This document shows positions 35,203 through 41,923 of a stretch of 64,000 bases of DNA, piece after piece (within the stretch, counting starts at the first letter, position 1; each line of letters starts with the position of its first letter). Origin of the DNA: Betaproteobacteria bacterium (lineage in GTDB: Bacteria; Pseudomonadota; Gammaproteobacteria; Burkholderiales; SG8-39). Location: contig VBCA01000001.1 of assembly GCA_005881575.1 (NCBI GenBank), positions 21,611-85,610 on the forward strand, in the 5' to 3' direction. Both the position numbers and the translations under genes were made by a program. The notes below the pieces were generated by a model. The model made no database searches, was not told the origin of the DNA, and worked only from the letters and a program-made list of their open reading frames with translations.

Positions 35203-36414
35203 TCAGGCGGGCACGGGCTTGCGGGCAACCGGCCGCTCGTCGATCGGCAGATTCACGACCACGGAAATCACCGACAGCCCGATCGCGATCAGCCACACGA
35301 GCTGGTACGAGCCGGTGCGATCGAAGAGGTAGCCGCCGAGCCAGCCGCCGAAGAAGCTGCCGAGCTGGTGGAAGAAGAACACGAAGCCCGACAGCATGGC
35401 GAGGTGCTTCACGCCGAAAATTCCGGCGACGACGCCGTTGGTGAGCGGCACGGTGCCGAGCCAGAGGAAGCCCATCGCTGCGGCGAAGAGGTAGGCCGAC
35501 ATCGGCGTGAGGGGAAAGACGAGCAGCAGGGCGATTGCGAACCCGCGCGCGGCGTAGAGGCCGGAAAGCAGGTAGGTCTTCGAGAAACGGCTGCCGAGTT
35601 GTCCGGCGAGGTAGGATCCGAAAATATTGAACAAGCCTATCAGCGACAAGCAGATGGTGCCGTCGCGGGCGCTCAGTCCCTGGTCCATCAGGAATGCGGG
35701 AAAGTGCGTGCCGATGAAGACGACCTGGAAGCCGCAGGCGAAGTACCCCACGCCGAGCAGCCAGAAGCCTCTGTGGCGAAAAGCCTCCGCGAGCGCTTCC
35801 TTGAGCGACACGCCCGCGCCGGCGGCTAGCGTACCGTGGTAGCCCTTGTCGGCCACACCGAATGAAGCGGGCACCACCACGGCCACGAGCAGCGACAAGG
35901 CGATCAGCGCGGAATACCAGCCGAGACCGGTGATCAGGACGAGCGCAAGGGGCAGCAGCGCGAACTGGCCGAAGGAGCCCGCGGCGCTCGCGATGCCGAG
36001 CACGACGCTCCGCTTCTCCGCGGAATAGGCGCGCCCGAGCGCGCCGAAGACGATATTGAAAGTCGTGCAGCTCATGCCGATGCCGACAAAGATGCCGATC
36101 GCGAGCGTGAGCCCGAGGGCGCTGCTCGAGTTCGCCATGAACACGAGACCGAGCGCGTAGAGTAGCCCTCCGGCGAAGAGCACCCGCCGCGCGCCGAAGC
36201 GATCCGCGAGCATTCCGGTAAAAGGCTGCGTGATGCCCCACAGCAGGTTCTGCAGCGCCACGGCGAAACCGAACACCTCGCGGCCCCAGCCGTTGTCCAT
36301 GCTCATCGGCTGCAGGAACAGCCCGAAGCCGTGGCGGATGCCGAGCGCGAGCGTGAGGATCAGGCTCGCGCACACCAGCATGACGGTAGGACTGGATTTG
36401 CGGAAATCGGGCAT
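35203..36414 (-). CDS. MFS transporter
   Basis: 403 aa with 12 TM. The MFS loop motif GMLADRFGARRV lies between TM2 and TM3. Confidence 0.8.
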   Translation of the reverse strand: MPDFRKSSPTVMLVCASLILTLALGIRHGFGLFLQPMSMDNGWGREVFGFAVALQNLLWGITQPFTGMLADRFGARRVLFAGGLLYALGLVFMANSSSALGLTLAIGIFVGIGMSCTTFNIVFGALGRAYSAEKRSVVLGIASAAGSFGQFALLPLALVLITGLGWYSALIALSLLVAVVVPASFGVADKGYHGTLAAGAGVSLKEALAEAFRHRGFWLLGVGYFACGFQVVFIGTHFPAFLMDQGLSARDGTICLSLIGLFNIFGSYLAGQLGSRFSKTYLLSGLYAARGFAIALLLVFPLTPMSAYLFAAAMGFLWLGTVPLTNGVVAGIFGVKHLAMLSGFVFFFHQLGSFFGGWLGGYLFDRTGSYQLVWLIAIGLSVISVVVNLPIDERPVARKPVPA

Positions 36415-36469
36415 GTCGGGATTTCAGCGCGGGAAAAGCGTGACAGGATATCACGCAGCGAGCTTCGTG

Positions 36470-36525
36470 ACGGCGTTTGATACCATAGGGATTCCGGTCT
36501 TCACCACGACGTGACGCTTTCGACC
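36470..36525 (+). repeat. 56-bp direct repeat, left copy (degenerate duplicate of the sulP 5' end)
   Basis: acggcgtttgataccatagggattccggtcTtcaccAcgacgtgacgcTttcgacc is 53/56 identical to 39496-39551. It retains GTG ACG CTT TCG ACC (MTLST), against the functional sulP start MTPST in the right copy. Confidence 0.85.
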
Positions 36526-36670
36526 TTTCCCTTCGATGATGCCGCTGGAAATGATCTGAACAACAAAGCGAAAGTCACGATGGGAGAATCCTATGGATTC
36601 CTTATCGTGTCACGGAACTGGCCCTATACCACTCACTTGGTACGTTGCCCGAACCGACTTACCACAAATT

Positions 36671-37981
36671 TTACTGACGAGGGTGTTTAAAGAAATGCTC
36701 TGCAATGGCCTTGGCAATGATGCCGTTTGCCAATTTATTATGGTGACCACTTTCCTCATAATACAGGCTAGCAAAGTCGCCAGGTTTCGGTTTCGCCATC
36801 GACTCAATTAAAACAGGTTCGGTATCAAGATAAGGTATTCCCCAACGTTCGATTTCTCTTATTAGGAATGCCTTTCGCCAGCCGCCGCCAGAAGTGGGGA
36901 CGAAGATTACGAAACGTAAATCGAGGCTGTTGGCGTTTGCCTCTTGCACGATTCCTTCAATTAGGCTTTTGCTAACCCGCTCTATTTCTCCTCGCCGATG
37001 CTCACTGTCCATTAAATTCCCACCCGTTTCTAGATACTCCGCAAACTGGACAAGGGCAGCTCCGAAATAGCTTGTTATTCCGACCGGATTTTTCTTGAGA
37101 TAGGAATCATTATTCGTTTCGACCGGGACGCCGCTTAGGACAAGCTCATTCTCTTTGATCAAGAAATATGGCTTGGGACGACTTCGATTTTTCATAATAC
37201 AGCGATCCAGGTCGACCGTAAGAATCCCAATAATGACCACAGGTTTCTTAAAATGGTCGTGAGATTGCTTAAATCGAAGATAGATTTGGTCCAAGCCATA
37301 ACCCGGTACACCGAAATTGTAGACTGTCTTACCCGGTAATAGGCTTTGCAATTGCTGAGGGATTTTATCCGCCATCAGCTTTCCAGCTCCAACAAAGGAA
37401 TCACCGTAAAACAATACACTCCCTTCCGTCGCTTCCAAAACATAAGGGGTATCGGCAATTACACCCAAGGGGTTCTGAGGGGTCCTTTTGTAAGCCCACC
37501 CCAAAATAGGATCGTACGCTAGCCCTGAACTGCTTCTTTGGAATTCGTTGAGATCGGCACTTTCGGCCATTTCCTTATCGATATTATCTAATCCCCATAC
37601 GATTCGAAGTTTGTAGTAATCGTCATCGGAAAGTACATTCGCATATAACCCAGGAGTACGAAACTTAGGGTGCCCAATGGCTATGCCGGTTCGAAGCGTG
37701 ATTTCCATTAACAGGGGACTCATTATGACAATACTAACAAGAAGGAGATTAAGATTCGCGACCAGATCCGTTCTCCGGTAGGTAATAGTGGTAAGCCCCC
37801 AACAGACCAGGATGAAAACAACGCTCCCCATCACAATTAGAACCAGTTCTCTATGCCTTGGAGAGATAGGTCCCAGTTGGTAAAGCAAAAAGTTTCTCAC
37901 AGGCAAAAATGCAACTGCGCCTCCCACAATCCATGTGACACCAATCAAAATGAGGACCTTTTCTCGGATACTTGTCTTCAT
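36671..37981 (-). CDS. membrane-anchored SGNH/GDSL-like hydrolase or acyltransferase (hypothetical)
   Basis: 436 aa with 3-4 N-terminal TM helices. Block I-like FYGDSFVGAG, block II-like NFGVPGYG and block V-like EESGHHNKLANGIIAKAI are present. AT-rich codon usage. Confidence 0.5.
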   Translation of the reverse strand: MKTSIREKVLILIGVTWIVGGAVAFLPVRNFLLYQLGPISPRHRELVLIVMGSVVFILVCWGLTTITYRRTDLVANLNLLLVSIVIMSPLLMEITLRTGIAIGHPKFRTPGLYANVLSDDDYYKLRIVWGLDNIDKEMAESADLNEFQRSSSGLAYDPILGWAYKRTPQNPLGVIADTPYVLEATEGSVLFYGDSFVGAGKLMADKIPQQLQSLLPGKTVYNFGVPGYGLDQIYLRFKQSHDHFKKPVVIIGILTVDLDRCIMKNRSRPKPYFLIKENELVLSGVPVETNNDSYLKKNPVGITSYFGAALVQFAEYLETGGNLMDSEHRRGEIERVSKSLIEGIVQEANANSLDLRFVIFVPTSGGGWRKAFLIREIERWGIPYLDTEPVLIESMAKPKPGDFASLYYEESGHHNKLANGIIAKAIAEHFFKHPRQ

Positions 37982-37990
37982 AAAACCACT

Positions 37991-39211
37991 TCAATTCCTT
38001 GAAAACACTTCAGGCAATTCTTTTATTAGAATTTCTGCAACAATCTTATTCCCCGACGGATTAAGGTGTCCATCGTGACTCCAATACAGATCCCTCAGGC
38101 GCAAATGACTCTCGCGAAAATGAAATGTTAGATCGATAAACCTAATGCCATCATGAGTGAGAAACTCTCGTAACTGTTCGTAGTATTTCGCGTCGGAATA
38201 CACCGTTTTGAAAGGCATAAGCACCATTACGAAGGGAATGTTATTCTCAGTTGCGAACTTCTTGAAGGCTAGGACTGCTTTCTTATTCTTAATCGCTTTT
38301 GGGTTATTACCATACCAATACTGTCCATTGCTGTCCATGTGGTCTCTATACTGTCCATTCGAGTCTTTATCGACAAAATACAAATTCCTAACCGAGGGCT
38401 TTTCGGCTGAAGCCGTCTCAGTCGAATCCGTCTTTTCTACCAACGATTTCACTAGATGTGCTGACAGCGAATATTGTCTGAGGAAATATTTGACTCTTTG
38501 CGACCATGTCCGTCCTTCCAGACTACGTCCTCGCAGACTAAGATCGAGTAACCTTTTATCAATGAATCTTCTTAATTCTATTTCCGGAATCTTCACACGC
38601 CTATCATCTTTATCAAGGCCTACATTATCCACTAGCCAACCATCCATTACAGTAGAATGAGGATAGGCATAGTCATTTGCAATATCATTCGCACAATAAA
38701 AAACAATTATCGCCTTAGGCAAAATTCCAATTTGTTCTACTATCTCAACGAATTTGTCGTATTGGTGTTGCTGGCCTGTATGTGTTACCCCGCATTTTAG
38801 TATTTGAGTGCCGGTCAAATTCTCGATTACAGTGCCAAATTTTTCATCGAAAGGTGCATACCCCCACGTATAACTGTCTCCCGTTAAATAAACATATTCT
38901 TCGTATTGAGCATGCTCTTTATCAAAGCAGCCTATTGAGTTCGACCAAATCGGATAAGTGATGCCATTTACCCAGTGATAGCCCTTTTTGTTTTTGCCAT
39001 TATCAAATCCTCTTTTTTCATGTTTTACAAAATAGCCTTTGGAAAAAGGACCTTGGATCCCAATATCCGGCGCAAGTGTGTCGCGTTGAAAATCCTCACG
39101 ATATTCATTGAAGTTAAGCGCATACTCATTAGGCAAGAAGAAGAACGTTATGACATCGAAAAATATGATGGTTAACAATACAAGTAAAAGAGTTAATAGG
39201 ATTTTCATCAT
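37991..39211 (-). CDS. membrane-anchored SGNH/GDSL-like hydrolase or acyltransferase (hypothetical)
   Basis: 406 aa with a single N-terminal TM (ILLTLLLVLLTIIFFDVITFFF). Block I LTGDSYTWGY, block III-like FYCANDIAND and block V-like WSHDGHLNPSGNKIVAEIL are present. The stop lies 9 nt before the next ORF's ATG. Confidence 0.55.
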   Translation of the reverse strand: MMKILLTLLLVLLTIIFFDVITFFFLPNEYALNFNEYREDFQRDTLAPDIGIQGPFSKGYFVKHEKRGFDNGKNKKGYHWVNGITYPIWSNSIGCFDKEHAQYEEYVYLTGDSYTWGYAPFDEKFGTVIENLTGTQILKCGVTHTGQQHQYDKFVEIVEQIGILPKAIIVFYCANDIANDYAYPHSTVMDGWLVDNVGLDKDDRRVKIPEIELRRFIDKRLLDLSLRGRSLEGRTWSQRVKYFLRQYSLSAHLVKSLVEKTDSTETASAEKPSVRNLYFVDKDSNGQYRDHMDSNGQYWYGNNPKAIKNKKAVLAFKKFATENNIPFVMVLMPFKTVYSDAKYYEQLREFLTHDGIRFIDLTFHFRESHLRLRDLYWSHDGHLNPSGNKIVAEILIKELPEVFSRN

Positions 39212-39495
39212 TTCTAGACGATCGGCGGTTTAAATCGTTTGTACAAACTAAAGCGGGATTTGAGTGATGGGAAAATCAATTTGGCTGTTGCCGGCGTCCC
39301 CTGCGGCTGAAACCTTGTAGCGCCGCCTGAGCGGTGCACCCGCACTCGGTTGCGCTCGATCCAGGTTGCCGGCGCGCGTTCGGCGGTCGGATCGACGCTC
39401 CCTGGGCGCTGCGTAACGGGCGTTGCGGCAAATCATGCAGTCGCCGGGCGCAGCAAGTCAAGCGCAGAGGCGCTCGCCTCGGAAAATCAATCGCA

Positions 39496-39551
39496 ACGGC
39501 GTTTGATACCATAGGGATTCCGGTCCTCACCCCGACGTGACGCCTTCGACC
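39496..39551 (+). repeat. 56-bp direct repeat, right copy (contains the sulP start codon and first 5 codons)
   Basis: 53/56 identical to 36470-36525. It includes the GTG at 39537. Confidence 0.85.
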
Positions 39552-41324
39552 GCATCGATCACTCCGCTCTCGCGGCGCTTGCTCCCGCTCCTCAGGTGGT
39601 GGCCGCGGGTCGACCGCGCAACGCTGAAGGCCGACGCGCTCGCGGGCCTCATCGGCGCCATCGTGGTGCTGCCGCAGGGCGTGGCGTTCGCGACTCTCGC
39701 GGGACTCCCTCCCGAGTACGGCCTGTACTGCGCGATGGTGCCCACCATCGTCGCGGCTCTGTTCGGCTCGTCCCTGCATACCGTCGCCGGCCCGACCAAT
39801 CCGGTCTCGCTCATGGTGTTCGCGGTGCTGAGCCCTCTCGCGACGCCGATGACCCCGCATTACATCGAGCTCGCCTTCACACTCGCCCTGATGTCGGGAA
39901 TCATCATGCTGGCGATGGGCCTTCTGCGGTTCGGGTCGCTGGTGAATTTCATGTCGAGCTCGGTCGTTGTCGGCTTCACCGCGGCGCTCGGCGTGTTCAT
40001 TTTCGCGAGCCAGCTCGGCAACTTTCTCGGCATCGCGTCGGCTCCGGCGGGGTTCGCCGGTCTGGTGCTCGCGACGCTCAGGCGCCTCGGCGACGCGCAA
40101 CCGTGGGTCATCGCCGTGGCAACCGCAACGATCGCGATCGGCGCGCTGTCGCGCCGCGTGCTGCCGAAAGTCCCGCCGATGCTGGCGGCGATGGTTTTGG
40201 GAAGCCTCATGGCCTACGTCATCAGCCATGCGCTCGGCGCGGAGCGCACGGGCCTGCGCACGCTCGGTCCGCTGCCCGGCGCGCTGCCGCCGCTCTCGTT
40301 CCCGGACGTCTCTGCGGCGACGCTGCAAAATCTCCTGCCGGGCGCAGTCGCCGTCGCGCTCGTGTCGCTGACGCAGGCGCTCTCGATCGCCCACGCCATC
40401 GCGCTCAAATCGGGACAGCGCCTGGACAACAACCAGGAATTCATCGCGCAGGGCCTTGCCAACGTCGCCGCGGCGTTCTTCTCGGGCTTTCCGACGAGCG
40501 CCTCAGCCAACCGTTGCGGCATCAACTACGACGCGGGCGCGAAGACGCCGATGTCGGCGATATTTTCCGCGCTGCTGCTGGTGCTCGTGCTCCTCGCGGT
40601 CGCGCCGCTCGTCGCCTACCTGCCGATCGCGGTCGTCGCGGGGCTGCTTTTCCTCGTCGCCTGGAACCTGATCGACTTTCGGCGCATCCGGAAGATCCTC
40701 GCGACGAGCCGCGGAGAGAGCGCGGTGCTCGCGGTCACCTTCTTTGCGACGCTCCTGCTCGACCTCGAGTTCGCGATCCTCGTGGGCGTGCTCGTCTCGT
40801 TGGTGTTGTACCTCAATCGCACATCCCACCCGATCCTGCGCAGCCTCGTGCCCGATCCGCGCCATACCGGGCGCAAGATGACGGAGGTCGAGGACAGCCT
40901 GCTCGAGTGCCCCCAGCTCAAGATCCTGCGCATCGAGGGCTCGATCTACTTCGGCGCGGTCGGCCACGTGGAGCGGCACCTCGACACGCTGCGCGAGCAC
41001 AGTCCCGGCCAGAAGCACCTGCTCCTCATGTCGAAGAGCATCAATTTCGTGGACATGGCGGGCGCCGAGCTGCTCGTGGAGGAAGCGCGCAGGCGGCGCG
41101 CGCTCGGCGGGGAGCTCTACTTCTACAGCCTGAGGAAACCGGCGGAGGAGCTGCTCGAGCGCGGCGGCTACATGGCGGAGCTCGGCCGCGAAAACGTCTT
41201 CCGCGGCAAGCGCGAGGCGATCGGCGGGGTGTTCACGCGGCTCGACCTCTCGATCTGCGCCACCTGCCGCGCGCGCATTTTCGAGGAGTGCGCGAGCGTG
41301 CCCGGACCCGGGGAGGCGGGATGA
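39537..41324 (+). CDS. sulP: SulP-family anion (sulfate/bicarbonate) permease with C-terminal STAS domain
   Basis: 595 aa with the SulP N-terminal motif (ADALAGLIGAIVVLPQGVAFATLAGLPPEYGLY) and a STAS domain (LKILRIEGSIYFGAV...LLLMSKSINFVDMAGAELL). Confidence 0.85.
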   Translation: MTPSTASITPLSRRLLPLLRWWPRVDRATLKADALAGLIGAIVVLPQGVAFATLAGLPPEYGLYCAMVPTIVAALFGSSLHTVAGPTNPVSLMVFAVLSPLATPMTPHYIELAFTLALMSGIIMLAMGLLRFGSLVNFMSSSVVVGFTAALGVFIFASQLGNFLGIASAPAGFAGLVLATLRRLGDAQPWVIAVATATIAIGALSRRVLPKVPPMLAAMVLGSLMAYVISHALGAERTGLRTLGPLPGALPPLSFPDVSAATLQNLLPGAVAVALVSLTQALSIAHAIALKSGQRLDNNQEFIAQGLANVAAAFFSGFPTSASANRCGINYDAGAKTPMSAIFSALLLVLVLLAVAPLVAYLPIAVVAGLLFLVAWNLIDFRRIRKILATSRGESAVLAVTFFATLLLDLEFAILVGVLVSLVLYLNRTSHPILRSLVPDPRHTGRKMTEVEDSLLECPQLKILRIEGSIYFGAVGHVERHLDTLREHSPGQKHLLLMSKSINFVDMAGAELLVEEARRRRALGGELYFYSLRKPAEELLERGGYMAELGRENVFRGKREAIGGVFTRLDLSICATCRARIFEECASVPGPGEAG

Positions 41325-41923
41325 CTCTCCGCCGCACCGCGGTTTTTCTGCTCGCGCTGCTCGCGGCCTGCGGCGGCCAGCCGAAGCTCCCTCCCCTCGC
41401 ACCGAACGCGGTGGTGCTCGCCTTCGGCGACAGCCTGACCTTCGGGATCGGTGCGAACGCGGGCGAAAGCTATCCGGCGCGGCTCGAAGCGCTGATCGCG
41501 CGCAAGGTGGTGTCGGCGGGCGTTCCGGGAGAAGCGAGCGCCGAAGGGCTTGTGCGCCTGCCCGCTGCGCTCGACGAGGCCAAGCCGCAGCTCGTCATCC
41601 TCTGTCACGGCGGCAACGATTTCCTGAGAAAGCTCGACGAGGCGCAGGCGGCGAACAACATCCGCGCCATGGTGCGCCTCGCGAGAAGCCGGGGTGCTCA
41701 GGTCGTGCTCATCGGCGTTCCCAAGCCCGGCCTGCTCCCTTCGCCCGCGGGCTTCTACGCGGATATCGCAAGGGAATTTCGCCTGCCCTACGAGGAGACG
41801 GCGCTGAAGAAGATCCTCACCGACAACGCTCTGAAGTCCGATCTCGTTCATCCGAACGCGGCCGGCTACGCGCGGCTCGCGGAAGCGATCGCCGCGCTTC
41901 TGAGGAAAACCGGGGCGGTGTGA
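41321..41923 (+). CDS. SGNH/GDSL arylesterase-like lipoprotein (TesA-like)
   Basis: Only the last 603 nt of track ORF 39596..41923 are used. The ATG at 41321 overlaps the sulP stop (ATGA). Lipobox LLAAC is present. Block I is AFGDSLTFG, block III is HGGNDF and block V is DLVHPNAAGY. Confidence 0.75.
   Translation: MTLRRTAVFLLALLAACGGQPKLPPLAPNAVVLAFGDSLTFGIGANAGESYPARLEALIARKVVSAGVPGEASAEGLVRLPAALDEAKPQLVILCHGGNDFLRKLDEAQAANNIRAMVRLARSRGAQVVLIGVPKPGLLPSPAGFYADIAREFRLPYEETALKKILTDNALKSDLVHPNAAGYARLAEAIAALLRKTGAV

Follow-up and report, generated by a model that had tools for sequence, protein, structure and literature searches.

The described systems closest to the DNA segment reported here are, with regard to its acquisition, islets associated with insertion sequences (ISs) and, with regard to its products, the enzymes of the SGNH/GDSL superfamily. 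ISL3 elements usually duplicate 8 bp of their target. An established route, according to PMC3240628, is homology-facilitated illegitimate recombination, in which one end is homologous and the other illegitimate. The segment lies between the divergent genes of an MFS transporter and a SulP-family anion transporter (sulP) in a 64,000-nucleotide (nt) stretch, hereafter the window, of Betaproteobacteria bacterium GCA_005881575.1 (contig VBCA01000001.1, positions 21,611-85,610 of the forward strand), and carries two genes, here called A and B. It resembles islets of the above kinds in its cargo of low guanine-plus-cytosine (GC) content beside a transposase remnant, in the absence of an integrase, in junctions without a conserved core and in an apparent spread via homology of the flanks. 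It differs from them in that the intact IS and its inverted repeats are gone and in that its target duplication, of 61 nt, is much longer than the 8 bp of ISL3. With a probability that we put at roughly 65%, the region represents an accessory islet that was acquired horizontally in linkage with an IS and became fixed in a hotspot, its bordering repeats being a trimmed target duplication. The islet is an ordinary accessory-gene insertion, and neither a new kind of mobile element nor a new enzyme system.

As for the products, A and B share with the SGNH/GDSL superfamily (PF13472; Escherichia coli TesA, 1ivn; Axe2 and Est2A) the predicted fold, the N-terminal GDS block, the Gly of block II and the C-terminal His block. 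With AlgJ/AlgX (PF16822), PatA/PatB and DltB/DltD they appear to have in common SGNH-like domains that are membrane-anchored, extracytoplasmic and directed at envelope polymers; the matches are weak. An enlarged SGNH domain is also found in CgnD, the soluble leader peptidase of the ribosomally made, post-translationally modified peptide (RiPP) cluster of crocagin biosynthesis (PMC10070186). However, identity to CgnD is 12% and the RiPP context is absent here.

The GC content of the window falls from ~0.66 to ~0.43 over positions 36526-39267, and this is the sole such trough within the 64 kb. Segments of 300 nt gave values of 0.37-0.49 from ~36450 to ~39300 against 0.61-0.72 on either side, and all other 1-kb bins were at 0.58 or above. 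Gene by gene, the values are 0.396 for A and 0.455 for B, compared with 0.654 for the MFS gene and 0.682 for sulP. The low-GC block stops at ~39267, beyond which lies a GC-rich element (0.67) that we call s. The trough is filled by two co-oriented minus-strand open reading frames (ORFs) separated by 9 nt, A and B. A preliminary description of this region had reported an island of ~40% GC in the MFS/sulP intergenic region with two such ORFs, and both the GC profile and the reading of the sequence agree with it. The same description gave the bracketing direct repeat as 56 bp. This core is real (53/56 positions identical between copies), but the full repeat comprises 61 nt, with 56/61 identical (Table 1). 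Within the window, a 30-mer of the repeat has exactly two occurrences, whereas none is expected from 100 shuffles. As had been read before, the right copy (GTG ACG CCT TCG ACC) is the functional start of sulP and the left one (GTG ACG CTT TCG ACC) is a relic. A palindrome upstream of A, TTTGTACAAA at 39238-39247, had also been pointed out. It was discarded as a signal because the islet contains 2 perfect palindromic 10-mers against 3.0 expected in shuffles.

Twenty-two contigs encoding a protein identical to A were read in soil-metagenome assemblies (ENA, JGI, NCBI and Logan), in addition to the metagenome-assembled genome (MAG) GCA_005881935.1. Gene order was constant in all 18 island-bearing loci that were fetched (10 via protein A and 9 via SulP, one contig being common to both), and six loci aligned to the window with 99.6-99.98% identity. 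Since independent assemblies show the same gene order and nearly identical sequences, an assembly artefact is ruled out. A SulP scan with one genome per species yielded 80 loci, almost all of them from MAGs labelled Burkholderiales or Betaproteobacteria. In 14 of these loci, from related Burkholderiales MAGs, the distance from the MFS ATG to the sulP GTG was 73-109 nt, with one copy of the 61-mer between them, and in the closest relatives (L023, L024, L026, L027 and L029) it was 92-97 nt. The nearest relative with an empty site is L023 (isolate BP_12), whose SulP is 96% identical. Its alignment to the window runs up to 36528 and resumes at 39491. The 96-nt empty site is restored by joining the 50 nt next to the MFS gene with the 46 nt next to sulP. 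Therefore, the insertion duplicated positions -46 to +15 of sulP. With respect to the consensus of the relatives, the left copy of the repeat has 3 private changes and the right copy 2. The region is thus a genuine insertion with target duplication in a soil Burkholderiales genome. Recent horizontal acquisition of the low-GC islet, already proposed in the preliminary description, is supported by the single-copy empty sites at the MFS-sulP junction of sister MAGs and by the GC content of ~0.43 versus ~0.66.

As a consequence of the 61-nt duplication, each flanking gene retained its own proximal upstream DNA: the full 96 nt in the case of the MFS gene and 46 nt in that of sulP. This may explain the survival of the insertion product. 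Distant relatives lack the MFS gene and have hyi directly beside sulP, and several other relatives carry inserts between hyi, MFS and sulP (L026 5753-6694, L029 796-1764, L030 3136-4008, L027 3313-3784 and L043 1966-6671), among them DUF433-like plus PIN-like toxin-antitoxin pairs. As relatives carry varied small inserts or miss the MFS gene at this place, the hyi-MFS-sulP neighbourhood is a hotspot for accessory DNA in the clade.

The islet has a second placement in a sister lineage, which we call type 2, the arrangement of the window being type 1. Type 2 was found in contigs L025 (isolate BP_14), L103, L104, L106, L108 and L109, where the A-B core is 94-95% identical to that of the window and the MFS-sulP junction is empty. 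The insertion site is 1.3 kb off, within the MFS gene at its 3' end, and has no 61-nt repeats. In these contigs A begins 25 nt past the 3'-truncated MFS gene. Next come, in this order, a GC-rich insert of 1.35 kb (s, truncated at its 5' end, and two small ORFs), B, 75 nt, the last 20 nt of the MFS gene and hyi. The 1.35-kb block (L108 458-1830; L103 1407-2719) splits the 9-nt spacer between A and B and is bordered by AGTG/AGGTG; its ORFs would encode a 96-aa lipoprotein-like and an 80-aa membrane protein, neither of them with Pfam matches. At fourfold-degenerate sites, types 1 and 2 differ by 12-15% in A and by 7.8% in B, against 26% in MFS, 21.5% in SulP and 17.8% in Hyi. Divergence is thus lower in the islet than in its flanks, and the islet is younger than the split of the hosts. 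Either it moved between the sister lineages or it was acquired twice from closely related sources. A clean circular permutation linking both placements was considered and rejected, given that 28 nt (39234-39261) are exclusive to the window and the pieces fail to close into one circle.

The preliminary description had stated that integrase, transposase and tRNA genes were lacking. No integrase was found in the islet and in the ~22 kb with Pfam gene calls, nor any tRNA in the 64-kb window, but the transposase part of the statement must be corrected, since the decayed 3' end of an ISL3-family transposase gene lies beside B. The gap of 145 nt that separates B from the left repeat encodes, on the plus strand, ...FDDAAGNDLNNKAKVTMGESYGF and, past a frameshift, ELALYHSLGTLPEPTYHKFY followed by a stop codon. 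When the annotated ISL3-family transposase of Paraburkholderia aromaticivorans pBN3 was compared by tblastn with the whole window, this gap gave the sole match, with two high-scoring segment pairs (residues 391-415, 68% identity, and residues 333-388; joint E 7e-10). In a pairwise match to an ISL3 transposase, 12/15 residues of LNNKAKVTMGESYGF were identical (E 2e-6), and the nucleotide alignment to the transposase gene covered 132 nt, through the stop codon. The relic is convergent with B, the two stop codons overlapping, and adjoins the left repeat directly; it is absent from the empty-site relatives. B itself is intact with respect to its closest homologues except for the last ~5 residues. 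A possible extension of the left repeat into sulP +16 to +38 was discarded because this stretch belongs to the relic.

On its own, the transposase fragment of the window gave no match against plasmids and Pfam, and it was significant only in pairwise or tblastn comparisons with a real ISL3 transposase. The type-2 copies carry a complementary remnant of the same gene (L108 3137-3282, minus strand). There, the 75 nt after B encode MKTIVRMLRSHRDLILNYFRAR, with 14/22 residues identical to transposase residues 342-363 (E 2e-8), which is the piece immediately upstream of that kept in the window. Altogether, type 1 retains residues 366-415, and type 2 retains residues 342-363 and 396-415. Once stitched together, the two fragments reached 26.2 bits on DDE_Tnp_ISL3 (PF01610), above its threshold, and were 57% identical to plasmid-borne ISL3 transposases from Polaromonas, Paraburkholderia and Caballeronia. 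The retention of adjacent, colinear pieces of the transposase by types 1 and 2 indicates that both outer junctions are secondary breakpoints in one ancestral IS. Both lineages thus received the islet together with a longer piece of the IS, the junctions on the IS side being deletions within the transposase gene. The islet as it stands is neither an ISL3 insertion sequence nor a composite transposon: ~50 3' codons of the transposase are left, no inverted repeats were identified in it and the duplication measures 61 nt. The inverted repeats of the reference Paraburkholderia IS were also sought, and none was convincing. Another ISL3-transposase-like fragment (L116 5689-5919; 31% identity over 81 aa, E 5e-6) was observed ~2 kb from an A-family homologue in the exopolysaccharide (EPS) gene cluster of an unrelated MAG.

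According to blastn, neither the empty sites nor the remainder of the window contain the s element. An exact-match scan of metagenome contigs revealed copies with 84-94% identity upstream of unrelated genes, namely a 387-aa ORF (L105 2080-2301) and a 517-aa secreted GDSL lipase (L110 4357-4564). In addition, s is present between A and the segment labelled X in L103 and L108 (516-705 of L108). The element begins with a promoter-like TTGACT-N18-CATGAT, and it probably supplies a promoter and a leader to A-B. The 11-nt GGAAAATCAAT is found at both borders of s in the window; its copy at 39270-39280 belongs to the conserved end of s, and the motif may represent a microhomology joint. Several identities of s were considered and rejected. 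An integron cassette or attC site is contradicted by the lack of matches in Rfam, by a folding no better than that of shuffled sequences (z = 0.14), by a single covarying pair among four sequences and by the absence of an integrase. A relic of the MFS gene or other local DNA is contradicted by blastn, which was blank in the window and in the empty-site relatives. A small protein gene is incompatible with the indels among copies, which disrupt every reading frame. Comparison with plasmids gave a 35-nt chance match only, and a similarity of the filler upstream of A in type 2 to the 5' end of s was discarded, since its score equalled the mean of shuffles. The element may be a portable promoter/leader or a small mobile element.

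Under the reading that we favour, that of an IS-linked accessory islet, a core of ~2.6 kb of low-GC DNA (39233 to 36601) encoding A and B would have arrived joined to an ISL3-family IS, of whose transposase gene the last ~150 nt survive beside B, and would have become fixed at the hyi-MFS-sulP hotspot. The integration would have duplicated 61 nt comprising the shared MFS/sulP promoter region and codons 1-5 of sulP, this duplication arising by illegitimate or homology-assisted recombination and being trimmed later by deletion. The s element, which is now upstream of A, would be the probable driver of A-B. After acquisition, the A-B core would have moved among sister lineages or been re-placed locally.

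Several observations weigh against this proposal. ISL3 transposition alone fails to account for the duplication, because 61 nt contrast with the usual 8 bp, and neither terminal inverted repeats nor a second IS copy were found at the islet. No single event was found that would derive one placement from the other, and s is upstream of A in the window but between A and B in type 2. No near-identical donor sequence was found, the nearest homologues being 62-66% identical and located on contigs of 52-54% GC, which lends no support to the Bacteroidota-like origin hinted at in the preliminary description. Only part of the contexts of homologues are glycan clusters. Finally, the rough ratio of nonsynonymous to synonymous substitution rates (dN/dS) of A and B is ~0.3-0.4, a weaker constraint than in MFS and SulP, so that a continuing function of A and B is not assured.

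A more specific version of the recombination step, Campbell-type or homology-facilitated integration, is possible but on balance we consider it unlikely. According to it, circular or linear DNA bearing the MFS/sulP intergenic segment of a relative recombined with the chromosome via this homology and the resulting duplication was trimmed to 61 nt. It fits the lower divergence of the islet relative to its flanks, which implies movement among relatives that offer flank homology, as well as the two placements at most 1.3 kb apart and the secondary appearance of both outer junctions, and it would proceed by the route described as established in PMC3240628. However, an intermediate with longer duplicated arms was not found, 61 nt is below the usual length of a homologous anchor, and the private changes of each copy fit post-duplication divergence and different parental alleles equally well.

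Site-specific integration, which the preliminary description had suggested in view of the att-like repeats, is very improbable. The repeats would be the attL and attR of a small integrative element mobilised by a tyrosine or serine recombinase acting in trans, and it is true that they border the insert exactly and that the empty site has one copy. Nevertheless, this is opposed by the lack of integrase and tRNA genes given above and by the junctions themselves: the left repeat adjoins an internal breakpoint of the transposase pseudogene, and the right one adjoins s with 11 nt of microhomology. Moreover, the sister lineage has the same cargo elsewhere without repeats, the islet was present in 9/9 contigs with an identical SulP and the excised form in 0/9, and the repeat copies differ at 5/61 positions. 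That A-B is ancestral to the clade and was lost in relatives is barely credible: recombination across the 61-nt repeats would give exactly the observed empty site, and the five differences between copies point to a not very recent duplication, but the GC content is 0.40-0.46 versus 0.65-0.68, the site is empty in 14 relatives with SulP identities of 72-96% while the islet occupies it in one population only, more distant relatives do not even have the MFS gene, and synonymous sites make the islet younger than the split between hosts.

AlphaFold2 models of A and B, obtained with family alignments of 52 and 26 sequences, had a predicted local distance difference test (pLDDT) of 89.9 and a predicted TM-score (pTM) of 0.88 for A, and of 88.5 and 0.86 for B. 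Foldseek searches against the PDB matched both models, with probability 1.0 and TM-scores (TMt) of 0.6-0.73, to TesA (A ~0.7, B ~0.72), GDSL lipases and CE2/CE3-type (acetyl-xylan) esterases; DltD and PatB were among the matches. The best match of both was CgnD (8a2n), with E 1e-7 and TMt 0.61 for A and E 7.5e-6 and TMt 0.56 for B. These models allow us to predict confidently that A and B both have the three-layer alpha/beta/alpha SGNH fold, in line with the preliminary description. A has one N-terminal helix (residues 2-25), and B has three long hydrophobic helices (5-36, 41-67 and 72-102). The motifs that had been noted earlier (the Ser of GDS, the Gly of block II and the C-terminal His) are invariant or nearly so across each family. 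Among the 52 sequences of the A family, G111-D112-S113, G146 and D176 are invariant and N175 is conserved in at least 90%; among the 26 of the B family, G193, S195 and G229 are invariant, D194 and H413 are conserved in at least 90%, and D231-Q232 is conserved. Block V of A reads D380-G-H382, a D-x-H spacing like that of AlgJ, and the 26-sequence alignment of B shows neither a conserved Asn in block III nor a conserved acid near H413.

The proteins of the window are below the curated Pfam and NCBIfam thresholds, whereas part of their family members reach E≤1e-3. Against PF13472 (Lipase_GDSL_2), A scored 31.9 bits (cut-off 32.9) and B gave E 0.13; the value of A for AlgX was 0.0046, and NCBIfam returned only a 30-bit partial match for A (cut-off 300). 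At E≤1e-3, PF13472 matched 25/52 A-family and 9/26 B-family members. PF16822 (AlgX) matched 22/52 members of the A family, PF19040 gave a weak match in 1/26 of the B family, and the A-family profile matched the D-x-H-W block of AlgJ (4o8v) with E 0.003. Pairwise BLAST detected no similarity between A and B; comparison of their family profiles with hhalign gave a probability of 97.9% (E 6e-13) over the whole catalytic domain, and both proteins are distant paralogues. An exhaustive profile search for the B family, with sequences clustered at 50% identity, yielded 680 clusters with E≤1e-30 and 5370 with E≤1e-10. Hence it is a common, widespread and uncharacterised SGNH subfamily and not a new kind of enzyme.

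A and B depart from the known members in several respects. They are twice as large as TesA, have N-terminal membrane helices (one in A and three in B), and possess an additional beta module in front of the domain as well as a helical insertion of ~100 residues. In contrast to canonical SGNH enzymes, A has D-x-H instead of DxxH, and in B no conserved block III Asn or block V Asp was identified. The Ser of A is N-terminal to D-x-H, which is the canonical SGNH order; in AlgX/AlgJ the order of both differs from the canonical one. Unlike the MBOAT-SGNH pairs PatA/PatB, AlgI/AlgJ/AlgX and DltB/DltD, A-B has no adjacent MBOAT gene. Unlike the OafA/OafB-type AT3-SGNH fusions, with their Acyl_transf_3 domain of ~10 transmembrane (TM) helices, A has one helix and B three, and no match to PF01757.

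Seven loci with homologues (L020, L021, L111, L112, L114, L115 and L116) were examined within 8-10 kb. Polysaccharide biosynthesis clusters were present in 2/3 B-family and 1/4 A-family contexts. Concerning the B-like genes, P0119 is in a Wzm/Wzt glycan cluster (L020), P0134 lies amid epimerases, GT9, GT1 and Wzx (L115), and P0135 is near SpoIID, an amidase and an epimerase. The A-like P0015 adjoins a Wza/GT4/Wzx/WbaP cluster (L116), and the remaining three A-like genes are isolated. In none of the seven was an A-like gene beside a B-like one, so that the earlier idea of a paired membrane-bound SGNH system finds no support. Neither MBOAT (PF03062) nor AT3 genes were found in the islet, in the gene calls of the window region or in these contexts. 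One of the loci, L111 8096-13212 (Candidatus Thiosymbion oneisti FLUY01000766.1), contains two A-family paralogues that are 89-91% identical over 300-nt repeat blocks, with a GC content of 0.52-0.57 versus ~0.64 in the flanks. It was considered as a parallel case of insertion-linked target duplication, but A plus gatB turned out to be duplicated in tandem there, the gatB copy being degenerate and internally deleted.

From the distribution of charges and the number of helices, both catalytic domains would be periplasmic. A and B are most likely inner-membrane-anchored esterases or acyltransferases with an envelope polysaccharide or lipid as substrate. Based on the contexts of homologues, a role on an envelope glycan is plausible, and to this extent the acylation or de-acylation of a surface glycan or lipid proposed in the preliminary description can be maintained. 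We regard as quite doubtful the broader view that A and B are MBOAT-independent SGNH enzymes that acylate or de-acylate surface glycans with a lipid-derived donor through their own TM helices, together with s being an undescribed portable promoter/leader or small mobile element by which foreign genes are switched on in soil Burkholderiales.

The features of the locus are listed in Table 1. Downstream of sulP, a 200-aa TesA-like GDSL lipase gene (41321-41923, plus strand) overlaps the sulP stop codon. It was located 3' of sulP in every inspected contig of the population of the window, and it is a native SGNH enzyme adjoining the foreign pair A-B.

Table 1. Coordinates of the islet, its borders and the flanking genes in the window.
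Feature	Position	Strand	Basis or remark
MFS transporter gene, native flank	35203..36414	-	GC 0.65; Pfam MFS_1 E 1e-34; ATG 92-97 nt from sulP start in relatives
Native MFS-proximal intergenic DNA, 50 nt	36415..36464	.	Aligns to empty-site intergenic regions of L023-L029
Left 61-nt target copy (sulP -46..+15), now only upstream DNA of MFS	36465..36525	+	Single copy in empty-site relatives
ISL3-family transposase gene, decayed 3' end, ~codons 366-415, one frameshift	36530..36677	+	tblastn, pairwise, nucleotide alignment, Pfam
Gene B, 436 aa, three N-terminal hydrophobic helices and predicted SGNH-fold domain (S195, G229, H413)	36671..37981	-	
Gene A, 406 aa, one N-terminal TM helix, small beta-sheet module and predicted SGNH-fold domain (G111-D112-S113, G146, N175-D176, D380-x-H382)	37991..39211	-	
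AT-rich leader upstream of A, GC 0.40, with palindrome TTTGTACAAA	39212..39261	-	Proximal ~22 nt only (to 39233) common to type-2 copy
s element, GC-rich (0.67), non-coding, ~200-210 nt	39262..39478	-	Absent at empty sites; copies elsewhere
11-nt GGAAAATCAAT, junction of s with right repeat	39481..39491	.	Direct reading; duplicates 39270-39280
Right 61-nt target copy: 46 nt directly upstream of sulP, functional GTG and five codons	39491..39551	+	Continuous with sulP as in relatives
SulP-family anion transporter gene, native flank	39537..41324	+	Pfam Sulfate_transp E 4e-90, STAS

Current concepts are unchanged by this islet, the s element being its most curious by-product. The locus is a cleanly documented case of foreign DNA settling in a divergent promoter region, whose empty, filled and alternative states are all present in metagenomes. 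In addition, uncharacterised SGNH subfamilies that are common in metagenomes and frequently lie in glycan clusters gain anchored and enlarged members with A and B, which could guide biochemical work. Finally, the 61-nt duplication illustrates how insertions into a shared regulatory region can be tolerated.

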